Shown here: one piece after another, positions 1,565 through 51,187 of the stretch
How the letters are laid out: every line of letters begins with the position of its first letter
Numbering within the stretch: position 1 is the stretch's first letter
Position numbers and translations under genes: made by a program
Notes under the pieces: generated by a model
Told to the model about the DNA's origin: nothing
Databases searched by the model: none
The model's input: the letters and a program-made list of their open reading frames with translations, nothing else
NCBI GenBank assembly: GCA_951406725.2
Contig: OX597830.1
Span: 64,976,001 to 65,040,000 of the forward strand
DNA: 64,000 nucleotides
Direction of reading: 5' to 3'
Origin: Octopus vulgaris
Taxonomy: Eukaryota

Positions 1565-3869
1565 TACATACATATATGTTGTGAATCTATGTATGTACAC
1601 ACTATAATTGGTGTTTGTATATGCGATATGCGTGTGTAGCAAATGCTATTGTATCGATGGAACGCTGCAGAAGATTTGGTCTCAGTAGTCGTCCATGTCA
1701 CAATATTGTCTTCTGTAATATATTATGTCCATTCCTTCAAGCACTTTCTTTAATTTTGGTTAGAATTCTCATCTTCTTCTGGAATATGAATGCATAACCT
1801 TCGAATCGAGGTGACAGCCAAACCACAATGTGTCATATGTATGTGTAAAGTGAAATATGCACACACATTATATATGTATTTGTGTGTGTATATTTATATA
1901 TGTATGTATATATATGTGGGGGGGGGGGTTGTGTGTGAATATATGTATATACACACACATATACATGTATTATATATATGTATGAATGTATATATGTATG
2001 TATTTATAAAATTATCTGTGTGTGTATGTGTGTGTGTGTGTGTGTGCGTGTGTGTGTGTGTACAGAAAGTAGACAGAGAAATAGTAATCAATTATTTGAT
2101 ATGCGTTCTACGTTCGAATGTATATAAGAGGTGGTATGTATGGTGGTTTCTCAACTGATTTGCGGAAAAAATAATTGCAGTTTTCTTACTTTAAGACATT
2201 TTATTCGTATTTAAAAAAAAATTAAATTGTATTTTACTTTGTTCTTTGAAGGGAGCGGCATGCCAAAGAATAGACACAACGCTTCCTCAGCCTATCGTAA
2301 AAGGGGCGACTGAAAGTGGTTGATGTAAAGTTTGAATTCTGACGTCGTGAAACCCTCACCACGACGACTAGCGAATCAGAGCTTTGGTTTGGATGGTGGC
2401 TGCCTGGGTGATGCAAGGGTGTCATCTTCTACGAATAGTAGGGAATCACTAACAAATGGAGAATCGATCACCGCACTGTTACAGCGCATGACGTAACAAA
2501 CACTGCCCGGAATATCCAGCCAAGTTTTGATCCAAGAGACCGCAAACCAACAAACATCGTACAGCAACAAACGTTCAAGAAAGTTCATAATGGAGCCGAA
2601 AGCCTTAAGAATGAGAAATGCCGTAGAGAACTCTGTGATTCGCAGGCAAGTGTTACAGGACAACTAAATGTAGTTCTACAGTTGTTCAACAGTTGTTCTA
2701 CAAAAAAGTCACCGTATAACACGATTTTTATCCTTTGGTTGCAATTGTGTTTTCTATTTGCTTACCCCTAGAAAGTTTGAAAAATGGTTGATATATCCTT
2801 CAAACTTTGCTTTTATTACATTTATTTAAACCCTAAATAATTCCTATCAACACATGGCTATGCTGATCCTCCACCTGCTCCTGAAGCCATTAACGGAATA
2901 CCGAAGCGGTTAAGGTCAAACAACTGACAAGCAAATGTGTGATATTGAGCAGAATATTTGCTATAACGGGATTGTTGCTTCAGGAACTCAACGCTGATCT
3001 ATCTGAAATATAATGGACAATAGGTCAGTTCCAAAACATTGTTGTCCAAGTCACAAAAACAAAATTTGAAGTGAATAGTAGTCATTTCCTTTGATTTCTA
3101 GATAGGCTGAAATAGCAAATAATTCTTTTGACCAAAGGCAAAATATATAAAAACACAGTGTAATAGGAATAATAAAAAGGAAAATAATCGTCTATACAGA
3201 TTTTGTTTGTTACACAAAACTGAAACACAAAAGTTCCATCTTTTTGAAAGCATTGTGTCATGCGACAAAAATATATTCTATACAACAGACGTTGTTCCAA
3301 GACGTGTTTGACCAAAGTACTTTCCAAAAACGCAGCTACAGAAAATGTATGTTATAATTCCTATTTGTATGTCTCCGTATGGAACGATACACTACGAGTT
3401 CCTGAATCCTTGCAACACCATCATAGCAGTGAAGTGTTACTATGAAATCATACAATAAAATTGGAGTTGGCAAGATCTGCAATATATACGTCAATATAGG
3501 TCAATCGAATATGAGAGGTTCTTCTCCATCACAATCACCTAAAATATATTTTACAAAGGAAATAAACAATAAAGATTTGTGATGCAAATACACAATTTTC
3601 AGCAGAAAGCTTTGATCAGTTTTTTTATTTGGTGGCCGTAATTTTTGCGTTCTTCCAGTTTTAGAGGAGGTTCTTTGAGTCTCTACAAAAGACAACGTCA
3701 TTAATAATGAAGCTGCAGATGGAAATGCCTTTAAATTAATCGGTTCAGAAATATATTTGCTCCTCGAACAAATATGACATTTTGCTTGTTGCTAAAAGTG
3801 CGTAGATTCTAATAGATATTATTTGTTGTATAAGTCTAAGCTGAAATATATGTATACTCATATATATAT

Positions 3870-3924
<55 letters not shown>

Positions 3925-3930
<6 letters not shown>

Positions 3931-4711
3931 GTAAAGAGTGAAAAAACGACGTCAATATGTCTGAAGAATATTAGAAAACTTTTTTTTTTTAATTTTTTTC
4001 TCTTATAATGACAAAATTTTTTAAGAAAGACCGGTTTCGCATTTAGCTTTTCAAATTTCTTGTGACGTTATGTTTATTTGAATGGAGTTATTCTTGTGTT
4101 TATGCTCCGGAGAGTTCTAAATAAGGGAAGGTAGTGGGTAATTTCTTCCGGTGTAAGGGAGATAATCGCTTTAAAATTTTTTTCCTTTTCCCTTAATGTG
4201 AATTTCTCAGTATCAGTATGTTCGGATGGTTGAATCTGGGCTTGTACTTTTCAATGAAGAATGTTTCCTTGTTTAGTCTAATTTGTGTTGGTGATCCGAA
4301 AGCACATTGGTAAAATGGAAAGATTAAAAATTGTGGTAGCAGTTGCTTTGCGCATTTCTCAATGTGCTCACTAAAAGGTATCATTCTATATTCTGGGAAT
4401 GCAATCTGTTGTCGATGCAGTGTGCATCTACGTCTGAGTGATAGTCCCGTGGAACCCACGTAGTCTTGGTGGCAGCCCAAGCATTCTATGACATAAATTA
4501 TGTTTTCAGAGGCACAAGTAAAGTTAGATTTGATCTTGAATTTTGTCATTATAAGAGAAAAAAATTTTTTTTTTTTGTAAATTTTCTAATATTCTTCAGA
4601 CATATTGACGCAAATATATATATTTTTTAACATTTAAGCCTTCTGTCGTTTTTTCACTCTTTACTATTTTCTATATATTCACCCACGTGCTTTCACAAAC
4701 CAACTTTCTTA

Positions 4712-4713
<2 letters not shown>
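3925..4713 (-). mobile_element. 5'-truncated Penelope-like element (GIY-YIG 3' end plus inverted terminal segment)
   Basis: ORF 4193-4549 has the GIY-YIG signature NIIYVIECLGCHQDYVGST. 4545-4670 is an inverted copy of 3925-4018 followed by a tail. Inserted in (TA)n and close to the element at 9233-11035. Confidence 0.9.
4023..4061 (-). ncRNA. Minimal type I hammerhead ribozyme, U3-A8 core variant
   Basis: Minus strand reads AAGAAAT TTGAAAA GC-TAAAT-GC GAAA CCGG TC TTTCTT: stem I, core UUGAAAA, 2-bp stem II, palindromic stem III (ACCGGT), GUC site. Confidence 0.7.
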
Positions 4714-4751
<38 letters not shown>

Positions 4752-4755
<4 letters not shown>

Positions 4756-5095
4756 TTTAAATGACAGAAGAATCACTCTCAAGCTACTCAATCATCATTG
4801 AATGACATTATCCACAATAGGTACATATAGGACTAAATATTGAAATTATCAAAATTAATACTTACAATTCTTATTTCAAATCAAATACTTTACATTATAA
4901 GAAATGCAGGTATTAATTTTGATAATTCTAATATTTAGTCCTGTATGTACCTATTGTGGATAATGTCATTTAATGACGATTGAGTTGCTGGAGGGTGATT
5001 CTGTCTCTTAAACATATCTTATATATGTATATAAGACAGTGAGTAATTCAATTTAGTACCACCCATCTCCTCTGTGGAGTCGGAAATAAATTCCC

Positions 5096-5098
<3 letters not shown>
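4752..5098. repeat. Imperfect fold-back inverted repeat with one-sided tail in a microsatellite (probable PLE terminus)
   Basis: About 110-bp arms at ~4752-4862 and ~4910-5022 (aatgacattatccacaataggtacat / atgtacctattgtggataatgtcatt), followed by a unique tail. Confidence 0.65.
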
Positions 5099-5170
<72 letters not shown>

Positions 5171-5245
5171 CGTATATGCATACATATATTTATATGTGTA
5201 TATATATATACATACATATATATATATATATGTATAAACATATAT

Positions 5246-5354
<109 letters not shown>

Positions 5355-5355
5355 A

Positions 5356-5879
5356 CAGGATCTTCAAGACGTCTCTCCGCAATAAGTATTTTATTGCAAA
5401 ATACATATTTATAAGATGGTATAAGACTACAAAAGAATATATTAGACTTTACAAGACTTTAAACATCTTTATAAGAAGTGTTGAAAGTGTCATCCTTCAT
5501 TTTCAATACATAAGTTGACTCTTCTTCACGTTTTAAAATACAACTTCGAGAGTCTGACGCGGTATGGACCATGTGAAGGTTACGATTGCGTCTCTTAGCT
5601 CATTAATGGTTTTCGGGCGATTCTTGTACACTGGTTCTTTACTTGCTCTCTGGAAAAAAAAATCTGGCGGTGTTAATCAGCTGATCTTGGTGGCCAAATT
5701 CCCTTCGAAATAATCCATTCAGCAAAAATCTCTTCAAAGAGCGGCATTGTGATGCTCGAAGTATGTACTTTAACTCCATCTTGCAGAAAGTGTGCATTAT
5801 TAATTTCACGTTCAGTGAGTTGGCAAACAAATGGCTAGACAATATTTGAGCAGTGCGGAAAGACTTTTTGAACACCTTG
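5356..5879 (-). mobile_element. Internally deleted Tc1/mariner-superfamily DNA transposon
   Basis: Degenerate TIRs (caggatcttcaagacgtctctccgca versus the reverse complement of tgcggaaagactttttgaacaccttg). Minus strand gives the frameshifted transposase motif WPPRSAD..TPPDFF...KEPVYKNRPKTINELRDAI. Confidence 0.75.
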
Positions 5880-5886
5880 TGTGTGC

Positions 5887-5930
<44 letters not shown>

Positions 5931-5932
<2 letters not shown>

Positions 5933-6250
5933 CGGCACGTGGCTTAGTGGTTAGGGCATTCAGCTTACGATCGAAAGGTCATGATTTCAATTCCCGGCGA
6001 AGCACTGTGTCCTTGAGCAAGACACTTTATTTCACGTTGCTCCAGTCCACTCAGCTGGCAAAAATGAGTTGTACCTGTATTTCAAAGGGCCAGCTTGTCA
6101 CATTATGTGTCACGCTGAACTTCCCTGAGAACTACGTTAAGAGTACACATGTCTGTGGAGTGCTCAGCCACTTGCACGTTAATTTCACGAACAAGCTGTT
6201 CCGTTGATCGTATCAGCTGTGATCCTCCTCATCGTAACCGACGAAGTTCT
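5931..6250 (+). mobile_element. SINE family C (short-body variant)
   Basis: tRNA-like head (tggcttagtggttagggca...ttcaattcc) and family C tail ending cgtaaccgacg. Confidence 0.8.
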
Positions 6251-6781
6251 TCTTTATATATATATATGTGTGTGTGTATGTGTGTGGGGTGGGGTGTTTA
6301 TATACACAAACACACAGTATATATATTTATAATGTAGTAATGCTTCAACAAGCAGAAAAGCACTTGATCAGCTAATAGATTACAGATTAATAATAATTTC
6401 GATCAAGAAACCTTGTAGTTCGTTTCATTATAACATAGTTGTATGTAGGTATGTATATATATACCACAAAAATATAGGTACGTATGTTGCTTTAAATTTC
6501 GTAGCTAAATTCCACAAAATTGTTTATCGCGTATGTAGTGTGTCTATGTGCCCTTCACATTGGTCAGAGAGTATGTCGTAGACAGACAGAGAGAAAGAGA
6601 GAGACAGGGAGGAGGGAGAGTGTGTATGCAAATGTTGAAGTAGGGTTACATATATGGGTATTGTGTAGCTATGTATGTTTAACATATAGACTAACAGAGA
6701 AAGAAATATACACGTGTATAATTATATACAATTACAAGTACGCATACACAATGAATTACACATTTACGTACAAATACATTA

Positions 6782-6844
<63 letters not shown>

Positions 6845-7267
6845 ATGCGCATGCGTATGTGTTTGTGTGTGTGTGTGTGTGTGTGTAAGTGTGTTCGGGA
6901 AAGCGTACGATGGCGATGGGAATGAAGAGGCTGCAGGAGTTGATCTATAATTTTAATAGTTGGAAATTAAATTGTAATGTAAATTTTTATTGATGCCTCA
7001 GAGAAAATGAAATGTTGCCCCTACACGCCACCGCCACTACCATCGCACACCAACACTGGAATCCAATTATTCTTTTGGAGATTGGCTCTGAGACAAGACG
7101 TGCCAGATGGCGTCACATGGGCCATAACATTAAGGGTCGCTCGCGCTTATTGACTTTTCAATAACAACAACAACAGCAACAACAACGACAGCAACAACAG
7201 CAGCGATAACATCATCAATAATAATAATAATAGCAAAATTAATTATGACGATGACGACGACGACGAC

Positions 7268-7314
<47 letters not shown>

Positions 7315-7469
7315 CGACGACGACGACGACGACGACGATACTGCACTGCAAAACTCATTAAGTACATAGCGTCATTGACACAGCTACAAGTAAATACACA
7401 CACTTTGCGTAGCTCTCATTTATGTATGTGTGTGTGTGTGTGTGTGCGCGCGTGCGCGGTATGTATATG

Positions 7470-7504
<35 letters not shown>

Positions 7505-7580
7505 GTACACACATATATGTCTATGAGTGTGTGTATGTGCATCTGTGCGTATATATATATATATATGTATACATATAAGC

Positions 7581-7638
<58 letters not shown>

Positions 7639-7907
7639 GTATACATATATATATATATATGATTATATATATGAACATGTATATGTATACATATATATAT
7701 ATATGTGTATGTATGTGTGTGTTTATGTATATATATATGCATATATATAGATGTATATATGTGTATATATATATATATACATGTACATATATATATATAT
7801 GTATGTATGTATACACGCGCACGCATATGTATGTATAAATATGTACATTTGTATACCTATGTCTTCTAAACATATATTTATTATGTATATATATATAATA
7901 GATATTA

Positions 7908-7956
<49 letters not shown>

Positions 7957-8028
7957 GTATATATATATGTATATATATATGTATGTATATATGTAAGTAT
8001 GTGTGTATGTATTATGTACGTACCTACG

Positions 8029-8062
<34 letters not shown>

Positions 8063-8490
8063 TGTATGTATGTATGTATGTATGTATGTATGTATGAATG
8101 CATGTATGTACGTATGTATGTATGTATGTATAGGAAACTCTTATAAGCAGAAACCATTCGTGTCTCTATTTGCCAATATTCCAATCTAGTTTATAGAAAC
8201 ACTACAGTCATTCCCTTTTCATCCTTTAGGGCACAACAGCTGCTGTCCTAGCTTCCCAAGAAGAAAACTAATTTGGTGACGTTTCTTAGTAGAGTTTCTT
8301 GGAGAAGAAGAACTCGAAGAATTCTAATTATGATAACCCTGCAAACCTCAAATATAAAATATTCCTTCTTTGATACAGTATAATATCTCAGATGTGTAGA
8401 AGAAACTCAAAAACAATTAATCTGCAATGACTATGTACATTTATATAGAAATGTAATAAACGTGTTGAAGTATTTCATAGTAAGACTAGA

Positions 8491-9124
8491 CGTGGCTGTG
8501 TGGTTAAAGAAGCATGTTTTGCTACTACATGTTTTCGGGTTCATTTCTACTACGAGGCGATTTGGGAATGTACCTTCTTCTATGTCCTTGACTGACCAAT
8601 TCCTTGTAAGTGAATTTGATATACAGAAAATGTGTGAGAGCCCGACTTCCAAACACACATATATGTGAGTGTGTGTGTGAGTCTGTTTGTGTGCGTCTGT
8701 GTGTGCCACTACGACTTGACAACCGGTGTTCTTTTTTTTACCTCCCGGTAACACGTAGCGCTTCAGCAAATTTGGATCGATAGAACAAGTACCAAGCGTC
8801 TATCTTTTCCACTAAACCCTTGCAGATGATGCCCCAGCATGGAAGGTTTAAAGCCTTGAGTATAGATTTGGTAGACGGAAACTGAAAGAAGCCCGTCGTA
8901 TGTATAAGTGTATGTGTTTGTGTGTCTGTGTTTGTCCCCCCAACATCGCTTGACAACCGGCGCTGGTGTGTTTAGTCCCCGTAACCAAGCGGTTTAGCAA
9001 AAAAGACCGATAGAATAAGCACTAGGCTTACAATAAATCCTGGGGTCGATTTGTTCGACTAAAAGCGGTGCCCCAGCATGGCCGCAGTCAGATGACTGAA
9101 ACGAGATAAAACAATAAAAGAATA
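8491..9124 (+). mobile_element. Two adjacent SINE family A copies (one degenerate, one 5'-truncated)
   Basis: Head gtggctgtgtggttaaagaagc at 8491; second body from gatttggtagacggaaactgaaagaagcccgtcg to the tail at ~9124. Confidence 0.8.
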
Positions 9125-9368
9125 TACATAATACTTACACACACACACACATATATATATCTATATATGTATGTATAAATATGTATATATATATATGTAT
9201 ATATATATATGTGTATATATATATGTATATATAAGAAAATAGTAAAGTGTGAAAAAACGACAGAAGGCTTAAATGTTAAAAAATATATATATTTGTGTCA
9301 AAATGTCTGGAGAATATTGGAAAAATTTTTTTTCCCTTCCTTAAAATGACATAATTTAAAAATTTTAA

Positions 9369-9408
9369 AAGAAATTACCGGTTTCGCGTGTAGCTTTTCA
9401 AATTTCTT
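9369..9408 (-). ncRNA. Minimal type I hammerhead ribozyme, U3-A8 variant
   Basis: Reverse complement of 10838-10877; sense to the PLE ORF and about 135 nt downstream of its stop codon. Confidence 0.8.
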
Positions 9409-9544
9409 GTGACGTTATGTTTATATTGCATGGAGTTATCGTTGTGTTTATTAACAGGAGATTTCTAAATAAGGGGAGGTAGTGAGTGATTTCTTCCGGT
9501 GTAAGGGAGATAATCGCTTAAAAAATTTTTTTCCCTTCTCCTTG

Positions 9545-10440
9545 TTAATTTCTCTGTGTCAGTATGTTCGGATGGTTGAGTCTGGGTTTGTACTTTTCAA
9601 TGAAGAATGTTTCCTTGTTCAGTCTCATTTGTGTTGATGATCCGAAAGCACATTGGTAAAATGGGAAGATTAAAAATTGTGGCAGTATTTGCTTTGCGCA
9701 TTTCTCAATGTGCTCACTAAAAGGTATCATTCTATATTCTGGGAATGCAATTTGTTGTCGATGCAGTGTGCATCTACGCCTGAGTGATAGTCCCGTTGAA
9801 CCCACGTAGTCTTGCTGGCAGCCCGAGCATTTAATAACATAAATTATGTTTTCAGAGGCACAAGTAAAGTTAGATTTGATCTTGAATTTCTGTCCCTCTT
9901 TAAAGAAGAATTCTGATCCTTCCAATAGGTTAGGACATGTTGCACAGTTCGATCTACCACATTTTTTTACTTTTGCATCCGTAATTTTAGAAGACAATTT
10001 TGCCTTTGTGAGAATCTTTTTAAGTGATTTAGGCTGTTTGTAGCTTTTAATGATTTGGTGTATGTTTAGAATTTCCTTTAATTTTGGGTTTTTATGAAGT
10101 ATTGGTAAATTCTGGGTGATGATGGTGAAGGCTTCTTTGTTTCTGGGGTTGTATGTAGATATGTAAGGTAGTATTTTCGGGGAAGGTGTGTTGTTGTGTT
10201 GAACTTTTCTTAAAGTTTCTATGTTGATTTCTGTTGCACGTCTGATCCCATCCTCTATGAGTTGAGCTGGGTAATGTCTATCAATTAGGATGTTTTTGAG
10301 TTCTTGCAGTCTAAAGTTCCTGGTATTTTGTTCTGACACTATTGTGCATATCCTTCTTGCAAGGTTGAAGGGGATGTTTGTTTTAGTGTGTCTTGGGTGG
10401 CATGAATTAAAAAGAAGGTATTGTTTGGCGTATGTGGCTT
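9545..10440 (-). CDS. PLE RT thumb/linker plus GIY-YIG endonuclease (truncated ORF)
   Basis: 264-aa ORF, extendable upstream in frame to the inversion junction; GIY-YIG motif with the CxxC insert typical of PLEs. Confidence 0.9.
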
Positions 10441-10837
10441 TGTGGGTTCAACGGGACTATCACTCAGGCGTAGATGCACACTGCATCGACAACAGATTGC
10501 ATTCCCAGAATATAGAATGATACCTTTTAGTGAGCACATTGAGAAATGCGCAAAGCAAATACTGCCACAATTTTTAATCTTCCCATTTTACCAATGTGCT
10601 TTCGGATCATCAACACAAATGAGACTGAACAAGGAAACATTCTTCATTGAAAAGTACAAACCCAGACTCAACCATCCGAACATACTGACACAGAGAAATT
10701 AACAAGGAAAAGGGAAAAAAAATTTTAAGCGATTATCTCCCTTACACCGGAAGAAATCACTCACTACCTCCCCTTATTTAGAAATCTCCTGTTAATAAAC
10801 ACAACGATAGCTCCATGCAATATAAACATAACGTCAC

Positions 10838-10877
10838 AAGAAATTTGAAAAGCTACACGCGAAACCGGTAATTTCTT
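10838..10877 (+). ncRNA. Minimal type I hammerhead ribozyme, U3-A8 variant
   Basis: AAGAAAT TTGAAAA GC-TACAC-GC GAAA CCGG TA ATTTCTT: perfect 7-bp stem I, palindromic stem III, GUA cleavage triplet. Confidence 0.8.
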
Positions 10878-11281
10878 AAAAAATTTTTAAATTATGTCAT
10901 TTTAAGGAAGGGGAAAAAAAATTTTTCCAATATTCTCCAGACATTTTGACACAAATATATATATGTCGTTTTTTCACACTTTACTATTTTCTTATATATT
11001 CACCCACGTGCTTTACCAAACAAACTTTCTTATCTATATGTATATATATATATATATAGTAGAAATATGTTACGAAAAGGAATTATAAAATACACGTGGA
11101 AATGTAAGGGTAAGATATGAAAAATCAACGAAAATGCATATTGCAGATAGAAAAAGGCTATCTATGACAGGTAACGACAAATATATACATTTAGATTGAC
11201 TGAGGTAGTAATACGAGTCATAAAGGTCATTATTATGAGATGATTATAAGAAGTTAATAATAATAATAAAGTAAGAGACCG

Positions 11282-15698: not shown

Positions 15699-17271
15699 GT
15701 CGTGTTAGATGTTGACACAGTCATAAGAGAGCTTGAGCAAGAACAGACATACAAATATTTAGGGATAAATGAAGGCTCTGGTATTCAGCATGCAAGCATG
15801 AAAGAGAAAATCAGGAAGGAATGTTATAGGAAAGTTCGTGCAGTCCTGAAATCTGAACTAAATGCACGTAACAAGGTGTTAGCTATAAATTCCTTAGCAG
15901 TTCCAGTTGTTACTTATAGCTACAATGTGTTGAACTGGAATATGAGTGAAGTAAAGAATATAGATAGAAAAATACGCAAGCTGCTGAGTTGTAATAGGAT
16001 GCACCACCCAAAGGCAGACGTAGATCGCCTTTACCTTCCCAGAGCCCAAGGAGGTTGAGGCCTGATCCAATTTGAACTAGCTTACAAAACAACCACAATT
16101 GGACTGGCCAAATATATCGAAATATCGAATGACTGGATGCTAAAGCTCGTGGAAAATCACGAGAGACGAAAGAAGCTTCATTCTATCATCAAGGAAAGCA
16201 AAAAATTTGCTATTGATCTCGTGCAGGATACCCAAACTGAACAACCCGAGGGAAGTACGGCAACTATTGTTGCAAAGAAGGTGAAAATGATGGCAATGAA
16301 AAAAGCGCACGAGCAATTGGCTGATAGGTGGGAGGAGAAACCTCTGCACGGCAAATATGTGACCCGCAGCAAACAAGCTGATGTTGACCAGAAGCAAACC
16401 CATCAGTGGCTGCGGAGCTCAGGGCTAAAAGCAGAGAGCGAAGGTTTCATCCTGGCTGCTCAAGACCAAAGCCTATTAACACGGAACTACCAGGCCAATG
16501 TGATGAAAAATGGAGCAGACCCAAAATGCCGATTCTGCAACGACATGATTGAAACAGTGGACCACCTAATCTCTGGATGTAAAGTCTTAGCACCAGTGGA
16601 GTATAAATTAAGACATGACAGAGTTGGCCAATATCTCCACTGGCTAATAAGTCGGCATTACAATATCAAAACTGCCGACAAGTGGTATAATCACCACCCT
16701 GAGGCTGTAACTGAAGGAGAAAATGTAACCATTCTGTGGGACTTTCCAGTACATACAGACCGAACCATCAAGGCCAATAAACCAGATATTGTTGTGAAAG
16801 ACCAAAACAATAAAGTTTGCTTATTGATCGACATGAGCATCCCCTGTGATCATAATATCTCAGCGAAAGAGTTTGACAAGCTCAGAAAATATAAAGACCT
16901 ACTCATTGAAATTGAGAAAATGTGGCATCTCAAGGCGGTTACAATACCAGTGATCCTAGGAGCACTAGGAATGATCAAGAAGGGAACCGAAAATTATATG
17001 AGAATGATCCCTGGCTTACCATCCCTGCAAGAAGTGCAAAAGATTGTCTTAACTGGTACATCACACGTATTGAGAAGAGCATTGTCGATGTGAGAACTGT
17101 TGCTGCTCATGTATTTTAATTTAACTTTAAAAAAAAAAAAAAAAAAAAAATGAACGAACTACTGAGTTTGCTTTAATGGCCTACCAATATACACTATGAG
17201 TTTCTTTGCCCTAGGAGTCGGGAAGACACTCGGCAAGAAATGGAAGAAAATTTGAAAGAAGAAAAAAAAAA

Positions 17272-17272
<1 letters not shown>
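15699..17272 (+). mobile_element. 5'-truncated R4/Dong-clade non-LTR retrotransposon (RT end, CCHC, restriction-like endonuclease)
   Basis: Single frame (ORFs 15627-16058 and 16137-17093 are in phase) with YKYLG, YLPRAQGG*GL, HGKY, AQDQ, CRFC..ETVDHLISGC, RHD, KPDI, LLIDMSIP and K..KY. Flanked on both sides by (AAT)n, the known Dong target. Confidence 0.92.
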
Positions 17273-17305
<33 letters not shown>

Positions 17306-17307
<2 letters not shown>

Positions 17308-17782
17308 TCTTGGTATAAAAGATGGGCTACAGCAAATATTCTGCTCAATACCACAGATTTGCTTGTCAGTTGTTTGACCTTAACCAGTTGAGCATGTCCC
17401 TTAGTGGCTGACGATATGTGCATCTCTGATCACGAGCAGAAGTAGTGGGGGAGCATCATAGCCATGTGTTGAGAAGGATTCTTTGGGGTTTGAATAATTC
17501 ACCTCTAGAAACATGGGTGTTTCGTTCAACGTCCTTAAACAACCCTTATTCAGGGACCTTTTAAGCGGGATGGGTTACTCGATCTGAAGAAAATTCTAAC
17601 TGGGCTCCACCTGCAAGGTCATGTGCTGTTTATCTTGATATGAGATCACCATGTCGCGCACATTATGGTTGTGATGCATGTGCCTGGTGTACCCTTATCA
17701 GACGGGTAGTGATGATGGGTATACTGGGCTTCGTATATTTTACCCCAGTGTCGCTTTGATGGCATGCTCTGCTCGCTCACTC
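17306..17782 (+). mobile_element. Unclassified non-coding (AAT)n-associated element (family D), 5'-truncated
   Basis: Highly similar to 19907-20456 and 43810-44367; flanked by (AAT)n. Confidence 0.85.
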
Positions 17783-17799
17783 AATAATAATAATAATAA

Positions 17800-19772: not shown

Positions 19773-19814
19773 TTAATAAAAGCGATGATGATGATAGTAA
19801 TAATGATAATAATA

Positions 19815-19906
<92 letters not shown>

Positions 19907-19910
<4 letters not shown>

Positions 19911-20456
19911 GCCCTGATGCAGTACCAGGCAGTGGCTCTCATGGCTTCTGATCTTAACTGATTGGAAGTGTTATCATGTACATTGTTTTGTCTTGGTATA
20001 AAAGATGGGCTACAGCAAATATTCTGCTCAATACCACAGATTTGCTTGTCAGTTGTTTGAGCTTAACCAGTTGAGCAAGTCCCTGACGATATGTGCATCT
20101 CTGATCACGAGCAGAAGTAGTGGGGGAGCATCATACTCATGTGTTGAGAGGGATTCTTTGGGGTTTGAATAATCCACCTCTGGAAACATGGGTGGTTCTT
20201 TCAACGTCCTTCAACATCCCTTATTCAGGGACCTTTTGAGCGGAATGGGCTACTCAACCTGAAGAAAATTCTAACTCGGCCCCACCTGCAAGGTCATGTG
20301 CTGTTTATCTTGATATGAGATCACCATGTCGCGCACATATGGTTGTGATGCATGTGCCTGGTGCACCCTTATCAGACGGGTAGTCATGATGGGTATATTG
20401 GGCTTCGTATATTTTACCCCAGTGTCACTTTGATGGCATGAACTGCTCTCTCACTC
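19907..20456 (+). mobile_element. Family D element, apparently full length
   Basis: Starts aaatgccctgatgcagtacc and ends ctgctctctcactc; (AAT)n on both sides; same 5' end as 43810-44367. Confidence 0.88.
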
Positions 20457-20501
20457 AATAATAATTATAATAATAATAATAATAATAATAATGATAATAA
20501 T

Positions 20502-20696
20502 ACTTTCTAGTATAGGTACAAGGGCTGAAATTTTGGGTGACGGGACCTGTCGATTGCATCGACCCAGTGTTTCACTGGTACTTTATTTAATCGACCCCGA
20601 AAGGATGAAAGGCAAAGACGAACTCAGAACGTAACGGCAGACGAAATACTGCTAAGCATTTCGCCCGGCATGCTAACGTTTCTGCCAGCTCGCTGT
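20502..20696 (-). mobile_element. SINE family B
   Basis: atcgaccccgaaaggatgaaaggcaaag...gctaacgtttctgccagctcgc. Confidence 0.8.
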
Positions 20697-22196: not shown

Positions 22197-22237
22197 TATC
22201 ATTATTATTATTGTTATTATTATTATTATTATTATTA

Positions 22238-22912
22238 CTTTTTTTTTTTTTTCTTCTTTCAAATTTTCTTCCATTTCTTGCCGAGTGTCTTCCCGACTCC
22301 TAGGGCAAAGAAACTCATAGTGTATATTGGTAGGCCATTAAACCAAACTCAGTAGTTCGTTCATTTTTTTTTTTTTTTTTAAGTTAAATTAAAATACATG
22401 AGCAGCAACAGTTCTCACATCGACAATGCTCTTCTCAATACGTGTGATGTACCAGTTAAGACAATCTTTTGCACTTCTTGCAGGGATGGTAAGCCAGGGA
22501 TCATTCTCATATAATTTTCGGTTCCCTTCTTGATCATTCCTAGTGCTCCTAGGATCACTGGTATTGTAACCGCCTTGAGATGCCACATTTTCTCAATTTC
22601 AATGAGTAGGTCTTTATATTTTCTGAGCTTGTCAAACTCTTTCGCTGAGATATTATGATCACAGGGGATGCTCATGTCGATCAATAAGCAAACTTTATTG
22701 TTTTGGTCTTTCACAACAATATCTGGTTTATTGGCCTTGATGGTTCGGTCTGTATGTACTGGAAAGTCCCACAGAATGGTTACATTTTCTCCTTCAGTTA
22801 CAGCCTCAGGGTGGTGATTATACCACTTGTCGGCAGTTTTGATATTGTAATGCCGACTTATTAGCCAGTGGAGATATTGGCCAACTCTGTCATGTCTTAA
22901 TTTATACTCCAC

Positions 22913-22913
<1 letters not shown>
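22238..22913 (-). mobile_element. Second 5'-truncated copy of the R4/Dong-like LINE
   Basis: ORF 22415-22912 encodes the same peptide as the C-terminal part of 16137-17093; same 3' UTR; inserted in (ATT)n. Confidence 0.95.
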
Positions 22914-23278: not shown

Positions 23279-23436
23279 TCGTGGCTGTGTGGTAAGTAGC
23301 TTGCTAACCAACCACATGGTTCCGAGTTCAGTCCCACTGCATGGCATCTTGGGCAAGTGTCTTCTGCTATAGCCCCGGGTCGACCAATGCCTTGTGAGTA
23401 GATTTGGTAGACGGAAACTGAAAGAAGCCTGTCGTA

Positions 23437-23501
<65 letters not shown>

Positions 23502-23710
23502 TTGTGTGTCTGTGTTTGTCCCCCTAGCATTACTTGACAACCGATGCTGGTGTGTTTACGTCCCCGTTACTTAGCGGTTCGGCAAAAGTGACCGATAGAA
23601 TAAGTACTGGGGTTACAAAAAATAAGTCCCAGGGTCGATTTGCTCGACTAAAGGCGGTGCTCCAGCATGGCCCTCAGTCAAATGACTGAAACAAGTAAAA
23701 GAGCAAAGAG
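23279..23710 (+). mobile_element. SINE family A, near full length
   Basis: tRNA-like head gtggctgtgtggtaagtagc...gagttcagtccc, internal microsatellite, A-rich tail. Confidence 0.9.
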
Positions 23711-43758: not shown

Positions 43759-43765
43759 AATATTA

Positions 43766-43809
<44 letters not shown>

Positions 43810-44362
43810 GAGTGAGCGAGCAGAGCATGCCATCAAAGTGACACTGGGGTAAAATATACGAAGCCCAGTATACCCATCATGACTACCCGTCTGATAAGGG
43901 TACACCAGGCACATGCATCACAACCATATGTGCGCGACATGGTGATCTCATATCAAGATAAACAGCACATGACCTTGCAGGTGGAGCCCAGTTAGAATTT
44001 TCTTCAGATCGAGTAACCCATCCCGCTCAAAAGGTCCCTGAATAAGGGTTGTTTAAGGACGTTGAACGAAACACCCATGTTTCCAGAGGTGAATTATTCA
44101 AACCCCAAAGAATCCTTCTCAACACATGGCTATGATGCTCCCCCACTACTTCTGCTCGTGATCAGAGATGCACATAGAGTCAGCCACTAAGGGACATGCT
44201 CAACTGGTTAAGGTCAAACAACTGACAAGCAAATCTGTGGTATTGAGCAGAATATTTGCTGTAGCCCATCTTTTATACCAAGACAAAACAATGTACATGA
44301 TAACACTTCCAATCAGTTAAGATCAGAAGCCATGAGAGCCACTGCCTGGTACTGCATCAGGG

Positions 44363-44367
<5 letters not shown>
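43810..44367 (-). mobile_element. Family D element, full length
   Basis: Reverse-complement match to 19907-20456; within (ATT)n. Confidence 0.88.
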
Positions 44368-44429
<62 letters not shown>

Positions 44430-44455
44430 CATTATTATCATTATTATCATTATTA

Positions 44456-44540
<85 letters not shown>

Positions 44541-50726: not shown

Positions 50727-50798
50727 ATATATATAGCTCAGCGGTAGAGTATTCGACTGCAGATCGAGAGGTCCCCGGTTCGAACCCGGGTGATCCAT
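50727..50798 (+). pseudogene. tRNA-Cys(GCA) pseudogene lacking the 5' acceptor strand
   Basis: TAGCTCAGCGGTAGAGT (D arm/A box), TTCGA-CTGCAGA-TCGAG (anticodon GCA), CCCGG-TTCGAAC-CCGGG (T arm/B box). The 3' acceptor TGATCCA cannot pair with the 5' ATATATA. Confidence 0.85.
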
Positions 50799-50809
50799 TC
50801 AGATTTCAT

Positions 50810-51187
50810 AGGCGCAGGAGTGGCTGTGCGGTAAGTAGCTTGCTTACCAACCACATGGTTCCGAGTGCAGTCCCACTGAGTGGCACCTTGGCCCGACCAA
50901 AGCCTTGTGAGGGGATTTGGTTGACGGAAACTGACAGAAGCCCGTCGTATATATATGTATGTGTGTGTGTGTGTGTTCCCCCCCCCCAACATTGCTTGAC
51001 AACCGATGCTGGGATGCGGCCGTGTTTATGTCCCCGTAACTAGCGGTTCGGCAAAAGAGGCCGGTAGAATAAGTACTAGGCTTACAAAGAATAAGTCCCG
51101 GAGTCGATTTGCTCGACTAAAAGCGGTGCTCCAGCATGGCCGCAGCCAAATGACAGAAACAAGTAAACAAGTAAAAGAGTAAAAGAT
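50810..51187 (+). mobile_element. SINE family A
   Basis: ggcgcaggagtggctgtgcggtaagtagc...aaacaagtaaaagagtaaaaga. Confidence 0.9.

Follow-up and report, generated by a model that had tools for sequence, protein, structure and literature searches.

Head-to-head copies of a retroelement that each bear a hammerhead motif raise the questions of how such a palindrome is formed and what its ribozyme motifs could do. One such palindrome lies in a 64,000-nucleotide stretch of Octopus vulgaris DNA (the window, whose positions are used throughout), where an initial annotation had proposed a recent Penelope insertion with a U3-A8 hammerhead in each of two divergent arms. The insertion occupies 9225-11039, inside a (TA)n tract. 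Most probably it is a dead-on-arrival, 5'-truncated member of a high-copy Penelope-like element (PLE) family of the Neptune/Nematis type, in the standard head-to-head form. The Penelope identity was borne out by protein homology, residue alignment and matches to family sequences.

Anatomy and family of the insertion

Examination of the insertion and its target revealed the following features, given with the evidence for each:

9150-9224, no strand: (TA)n-rich microsatellite, left target flank (sequence)
9225-9805, minus: left arm, tail-less, the longer copy's 3' end (pseudo-LTR region) (BLAST and alignment)
9369-9408, minus: minimal type I hammerhead of the left arm, cut predicted between 9376 and 9375 (descriptor and folding)
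9545-10443, minus: 5'-truncated ORF remnant of 298 codons, comprising the reverse transcriptase (RT) thumb/C-terminal region, linker and endonuclease (alignment)
9575-9847, minus: GIY-YIG endonuclease with CCHH motif (alignment with homologues; sub-threshold Pfam GIY-YIG)
9935-9961, minus: C-x4-C-x2-C linker of the CX2-5CxxC type (alignment)
10430-10432, minus: Tyr codon in place of the Asp of the KxTD motif (Asp in 11/11 aligned homologues)
10442-10443, no strand: inversion junction with 2-nt microhomology (loose end of a contig of run X10 and start of the arm match)
10442-10999, plus: right arm, an inverted, more truncated copy with the last ~85 codons, stop and 3' region (BLAST and alignment)
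10838-10877, plus: second hammerhead, in the right arm and identical to the first, cut predicted between 10870 and 10871 (descriptor)
11000-11039, plus: 40-nt AC-rich tail, right arm only (matches the tail of the window's second copy, at 4679, with 3 mismatches in 36)
11040-11059, no strand: (TA)n right target flank (sequence)

Both ends run into (TA)n, so that no target-site duplication can be read. The right end had been put at 11035, which is matched by the 40-nt extension of the right arm. An ORF scan found no long host reading frame near the element (short exons could escape such a scan), microRNA matches to Rfam were microsatellite noise, and a sigma-70 promoter scan, which uses a bacterial model inapplicable to a eukaryote, stayed at chance level. 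A dispersed SINE-like repeat lies just left of the (TA)n target (8850-9124) and recurs at 22-394, 23281-23707 and 50820-51182.

The two arms pair from 9805 to 9225 (minus) with 10442 to 11002 (plus), point away from each other and enclose a spacer of 636 nt. BLAST aligned them at 94.9% identity over 583 columns, gaps included. Mismatches affect 7 of 559 aligned columns, one of them (9226) at the microsatellite edge, which leaves 6 internal substitutions in 558 columns (1.1%). The arms also differ by two 1-nt homopolymer indels and by a 21-nt deletion in the right arm at 10963/10964. The near-identity of two ~570-bp arms, as first described, thus holds for substitutions, but the deletion had gone unmentioned. 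Assembly error could explain part of these differences.

On the minus strand a frame runs open from 10447 until its stop codon at 9545-9547. It had been described as uninterrupted to the junction, which is correct except that family-derived sequence starts at 10443 and the first codons, coming from the inverted arm, arose by chance from the joining. Lacking the RT catalytic core, the copy cannot be autonomous. Nearly the whole remnant (97%) can be aligned with the C-terminal portion of proteins combining RT and GIY-YIG. A total of 107 longer homologues were found among 2341 candidates, the best being 75% identical over 97% of the query (E 2e-140), and the two relatives scanned for domains both carry an RT domain (RVT_1) plus GIY-YIG. 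When the remnant was aligned with 11 of the 107 relatives (alignment A1), the Tyr, Gly, Arg, His, Glu and Asn of the GIY-YIG core were invariant, as were the linker cysteines C161, C166 and C169 and, in 12 of 12 rows, the CCHH residues C205, C208, H227 and H244. The Pfam GIY-YIG match itself (E 0.0052, 17.5 bits) lies under the cut-off of 22.6. The Tyr codon at 10430-10432 is probably a sign of decay.

A CX2-5CxxC linker combined with a C-terminal endonuclease is reported as the mark of Neptune and Nematis elements, the Naiads having their endonuclease at the N-terminus (PMC8557442). These two characters point to the Neptune/Nematis type, a motif-based assignment in which the linker is common to both clades. 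Neptune-clade PLEs, as described in the same source, resemble the window copy in the order of RT and C-terminal GIY-YIG with CCHH, in the linker, in the microsatellite target, 5' truncation and inverted truncated copy, in a tail of 30-40 bp and in a hammerhead within the repeat; they differ in that the window copy retains only the C-terminal 298 codons. In viral contigs, 37 pattern matches yielded no relative, and in prokaryotic genome contigs one of 16 matches did, over 36 residues (L022), and was left aside. Penelope-like sequences do stand under bacterial labels (P0042, P0060, P0085 and L022; gill symbiont, MAG), and these are most likely host DNA in metagenome bins.

At least half of the sampled sequence words are contained in 20 public runs, which belong to 9 studies and carry six organism labels, none of them being listed as RNA. 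Mapping of four runs at 82% likeness gave 4616, 1738, 3056 and 71 contigs, and summed depth in run X1 was mostly 10^5-10^6 against 40-100 for a single contig, depth being no copy number. From contig counts and depth we infer a family of thousands of copies. One of them is the only other Penelope-like match in the window:

3915-4543, minus: long tail-less arm of the second copy (50 mismatches in 620 aligned columns against the first copy; 35-nt deletion near 3950)
4023-4061, minus: hammerhead of the second copy, same core, GUC triplet, one base shorter (descriptor; contigs of run X4)
4539-4720, plus: inverted short arm of the second copy, from downstream of the hammerhead, with its tail at 4679-4720 (BLAST)

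The arms of this copy overlap by a 5-nt microhomology (4539-4543). Both copies thus have the inverted pseudo-LTR and 40-nt tail by which PLEs with an endonuclease (EN+) are recognised.

Alleles of the family bear on the age of the insertion. Among the variant rows listed (40 of 133), at least 7 arm positions have a left-arm allele that accounts for less than 4% of the depth of the family in each of three DNA runs. Four of the 7 rare alleles listed are common to both arms (9336, 9453, 9688 and 9797) and imply one template or source copy, or arm-to-arm conversion. The other three (9367, 9538 and 9752) are private to the left arm, the right arm having the family allele, and look like decay after insertion. 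At ~0.5% divergence per arm the insertion is young for a repeat, not new. It can be called recent, as it had been, in this relative sense; the 21-nt deletion, the arm-private alleles and the Tyr at a position with Asp in all 11 homologues speak against more. An open reading frame is weak evidence of youth at such divergence. If an octopus calibration (distance 0.09 = 25 My, PMC13282606) applies, the insertion would be, very roughly, 1-2 My old.

The hammerhead of the terminal repeat

The 40-nt motif is made up of a 7-bp stem I, a U3-A8 core, a 2-bp stem II with a 5-nt loop, a palindromic stem III and a GUA triplet. A type I descriptor matched exactly twice in the 64 kb, with cores at 9401 (minus) and 10845 (plus), and gave a mean of 0 matches in 60 shuffles of the window, in agreement with the earlier report of an intact U3-A8 core in each arm. 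The paired 3-8 position, G10.1-C11.1, the GAAA box, U16.1 and H17, which characterise minimal type I hammerheads of PLEs, are all present. Rfam returned no hammerhead, either at gathering thresholds or in the 148 matches obtained at E up to 10 (3800-11200); a 40-nt variant whose stem II has 2 bp, the shortest among the motifs compared here (2 against 3-5), is expected to be missed. No variant row falls inside 9369-9408 among the 40 of 133 listed, where ~1.3 would be expected, so that this gap carries no information.

Since the motifs stand on opposite strands, the two hammerheads have no cis partnership. The ribozyme pair implied by the initial annotation thus falls away: on either strand there is a single sense hammerhead, and it is synthesised later than its complement. 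A non-LTR retrozyme, in which non-coding tandem repeats carry hammerheads on a single strand, was also considered and rejected, the repeats here being inverted and carrying coding sequence.

Structural selection had been deduced from the second copy, at 4023. Its TAAAT loop and GUC triplet are as described, but a 1-nt deletion had been overlooked, and changes are not significantly rarer inside the motif (3 of 39 sites) than at non-coding sites outside it (28 of 230; Fisher P 0.59). The lack of changes in 13 core sites of this copy was tried as proof of selection and set aside for too little power (P 0.19). To detect the hammerhead of copy 2, the descriptor must tolerate a single unpaired U separating stem I from the core; 7 X4 contigs, with a loose end before 9377, show the same form, which is therefore a subfamily trait.

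Distant relatives make the stronger case. Of 21 metagenome loci, 14 reach the end of the endonuclease and 13 have sequence after the stop, the other 8 being left out. A hammerhead occurs 63-415 nt after the stop in 7 of the 13, always in sense and never in antisense, and in none of 2600 shuffled post-stop regions. The 3-8 pair is C-G in five of these loci, U-A in one (L005) and U-G in one (L012), and stem III is palindromic in all seven, with five different sequences. The palindrome was first seen without being demanded; it is demanded by the final descriptor, which was written after an earlier scan. Stem I has only 2-3 bp in four of the seven loci, and several loci come from one assembly. Of the six loci without a match, four (L007, L009, L010 and L014) lack the motif, L004 breaks off within one, and the core of L015 is decayed. 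A stricter descriptor, run on 22 loci, gave post-ORF matches only in L001 and L006, its in-ORF matches in L001 and L015 being taken as chance. As judged from sequence comparison, the predicted hammerhead is a conserved structure, its position and covariation lying far beyond chance in distant relatives. Conservation of the structure is upheld on this ground, through the covarying 3-8 pair and palindromic stem III, and not through the 4023 copy.

Two of these loci deserve mention for their own sake. The U3-A8 hammerhead of L005 (1798-1835), in a relative of 40% identity, has a palindrome of 6 nt and a stem II flanked on either side by one additional base, which suggests that the U3-A8 variant arose more than once or is old in the group. 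L012 (1772-1802) combines a U3-G8 wobble with an unpaired U before the core and resembles the copy-2 subfamily.

The U3-A8 core is already published (Cervera & De la Pena 2014, PMC4209133), and so are the inverted arms with tail and the hammerheads on opposite strands. About 1,300 matches to U3-A8 min-hammerheads are reported from Schistosoma in that paper. The Cercyon PLEs of Schistosoma mansoni described there share the type I form, the covariant U3-A8 core, G10.1-C11.1, the palindromic stem III and pairs of motifs on opposite strands. They differ in a stem II of 7-8 bp (2 here), a stem I of 4-5 bp (7 here), an extra base between positions 9 and 10.1 that is absent here, and a motif spacing of about 100-700 bp against 1.43 kb.

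As a monomer the motif folds at -4.0 kcal/mol, and within its own arm the hammerhead form is minor, with stem I pair probabilities of 0.03-0.23. The dimer folds at -15.5 kcal/mol, stem II being kept and stems I and III becoming intermolecular; for the copy-2 variant the lowest-energy dimer is not of hammerhead form. On these models, the likeliest function, which we hold with some reserve, would be weak, assisted cleavage of dimers in tandem precursors: in intact tandem copies the motif would dimerize via its palindromic stem III and weakly cut the precursor RNA, probably with the help of the protein encoded by the element. In the anole Poseidon element, a protein-assisted hammerhead is reported to be dispensable for insertion in vitro, with no RNA ends at its site (PMC11167929).

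Alternatively, the hammerhead may be vestigial, kept by descent or as a protein-binding fold and not cutting, which we regard as possible, if not likely. The 2-bp stem II, the U3-A8 core and the low pair probabilities of the monomer are in line with this idea, as are the poor cutting reported for min-hammerheads of PLE repeats, even as dimers (PMC4209133), and a contig of run X10 that crosses the predicted cut unbroken (9242-9492), X10 being merely guessed to be RNA and contigs hiding ends. It accords less well with the covariation of core and palindromic stem III in relatives of 33-49% protein identity, or with homology to other subfamilies that stops at the 5' edge of stem I (9407-9408; runs X1, X3 and X10). 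The unpaired U beside the core in one subfamily might also be counted in its favour, but natural variants with bases inserted before position 3 have been published (PMC7151607).

Whatever weak dimer cleavage may do in tandem copies, the hammerheads of the window are probably idle: they lack a direct upstream repeat as partner, and read-through would bury the motif in a 560-bp duplex. Folding of 9233-11040 gave 560 (plus) or 546 (minus) pairs spanning more than 600 nt, with all 40 bases of the sense hammerhead paired to the opposite arm. The long dsRNA hairpin foreseen by the initial annotation is therefore correct as a conditional statement, the read-through RNA itself being hypothetical. The arms diverge, so that read-through from either side would make the antisense arm first and contain a single sense motif. 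By analogy with Adineta elements, for which an inward promoter in the repeat has been suggested (PMC3846280), such a promoter could make the read-through RNA. Run X10 has 17 places with A>G against 22 with G>A and 17 with C>T, and the three DNA runs have 14, 14 and 15 places with A>G, counts from multi-copy contigs that cannot show editing.

Formation of the head-to-head insertion

For the origin of the palindrome we favour priming on both strands of the target. The GIY-YIG endonuclease of the element would nick both strands of the (TA)n tract, and each nick would prime reverse transcription on element RNA, one at the pseudo-LTR end and the other 40 nt further, which would produce the tail. 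Both cDNAs would stop early, at about 1.2 kb and 0.6 kb, and join head to head by microhomology. The two hammerheads would then be a by-product, one terminal-repeat motif having been copied twice. The two ends 40 nt apart, the rare alleles common to both arms, the microhomology joins and the second copy of the same form all fit this scheme. An inverted truncated copy with a 30-40 bp tail at one end is described as typical of PLEs (PMC8557442, PMC3846280), and cutting and extension of both target strands, with two initiation sites bounding the tail, has been reported (PMC11167929).

The latter work concerns the Poseidon element PAc of Anolis (Frangieh et al. 2024), in which the termini are likewise about 40 nt apart, the tail AC-rich and the target AT-rich, and in which extension of both target strands would yield the head-to-head form. 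PAc belongs to another clade, and its RNA start sites are not homologous to the cut DNA, in contrast to the TATAT termini found here; the tail in the window also lacks a stable stem-loop (about -0.5 kcal/mol on folding). Pen2/Pen2a of Adineta vaga (PMC3846280) have inverted pLTRs, one of which may carry a 31-bp tail, and include 5'-truncated members as well as deletions and junctions with microhomology; they differ from the window copy, which has neither a junction palindrome nor a readable target-site duplication.

At the junction, a contig of run X10 tracks the window up to 10443 and then enters the upstream ORF of the family, and the match of the right arm begins at 10442. The resulting overlap of 2 nt is no greater than chance. 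A different inversion joint (10326/10425) is present in runs X1 and X4. No inverted arms were seen among the related metagenome loci, which are short contigs.

Self-priming or template switching on a single cDNA or antisense transcript, folded back on itself, would leave the identity of the element unchanged and is in our view rather unlikely. It would explain the alleles common to both arms, and palindromes at inverted junctions in Adineta have been linked to self-priming on an antisense template (PMC3846280). The junction studied here is not palindromic, however, with 636 unpaired nt between the arms and an overlap of only 2 nt, and the extra 40 nt of the right arm rule out copying from the left arm in its present state. 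A pair of independent events, in which a second element entered the first in reverse orientation, is very improbable: the family is very abundant and insertion of PLEs into or next to copies already present has been reported (PMC6765202), but four family-rare alleles are common to both arms, the second copy repeats the same form, and the junction and its surroundings are not an AT-rich target. Least probable of all is an assembly or fold-back read artefact; the window junction (10441/9805) is not among the 15 of 28 joints listed from four public runs, which speaks neither for nor against the locus, since these (Logan) contigs drop rare variants, while the arms differ by 6 substitutions and the 21-nt deletion, the right arm has the family allele at three positions (9367, 9538 and 9752) where that of the left is private, and the tail, absent from the left arm, is family sequence.

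The two copies share further details. Both ends finish in target-matching TATAT runs (two insertions only), the left terminus of the first copy merging with the target and its tail ending in such a run, and in either insertion it is the shorter arm that has the tail (n=2). One arm of each copy has a deletion (21 nt at 10963/10964; 35 nt near 3950), and the two can be placed at a common 3' breakpoint, ~36 nt from the tail-less end. This breakpoint is not GT-AG on either strand, folding found no stable hairpin there (-1.1 kcal/mol), and it is possibly a site of RT stalling or slipping. TATAT ends, a short tailed arm and a common deletion breakpoint, known here from two insertions, were not found in the available portions of published accounts of inverted Penelope insertions.

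A more specific version of two-strand priming can be drawn from these details. Both (TA)n strands would pair with and prime on one RNA, at two TA-like sites separated by 40 nt. The long tail-less arm would stem from the upstream start and the short tailed arm from the downstream one, and the two deletions with their common 3' breakpoint would result from RT stalling at a fixed point ~36 nt from the upstream start. We propose this target-complementary priming, taken together with the fixed stall and with one of the smallest working hammerheads, only tentatively, and as a whole consider it doubtful. If true, it would contrast with the non-homologous initiation of Poseidon and would be countable across thousands of copies, and the hammerhead of the family, with 40 nt, a 2-bp stem II and U3-A8, would be among the smallest that work.

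Significance and other repeats of the window

Taken alone, the insertion matters little, being one of many truncated copies with a published architecture and ribozyme variant. The high-copy family, in turn, makes it possible to test by counting how inverted insertions of Penelope elements arise, and its very small U3-A8 hammerhead, of which a natural subfamily variant exists, offers a simple substrate for the study of cleavage requirements. If read through, such palindromes would be a source of long dsRNA against the family.

The window holds several other repeats. Two 3' fragments of a non-LTR retrotransposon, 98% identical and in opposite orientation, lie at 16059-17306 (plus) and 22204-22913 (minus); they have a zinc knuckle (Pfam zf-RVT, E 0.00057) and, by eye, a restriction-like endonuclease. 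At its end the plus copy has a (TAA)n tract, a feature of R4/Dong-like elements. A repeat of 0.5-0.7 kb in three copies, 93-99% identical and adjoining (TAA)n tracts (17306-17799, 19774-20502 and 43764-44500), is probably a young SINE or LINE end. A second dispersed family, of 385 nt, has at least 5 copies (23963, 31800, 40249, 47186 and 59747). Finally, a truncated tRNA-like sequence at 50732-50792 (plus), lying between a TA run, which it follows immediately, and a repeat, matches the Rfam tRNA model over positions 6-65 with 45.4 bits; its middle triplet is GCA (Cys-type), and it was not called by ARAGORN.
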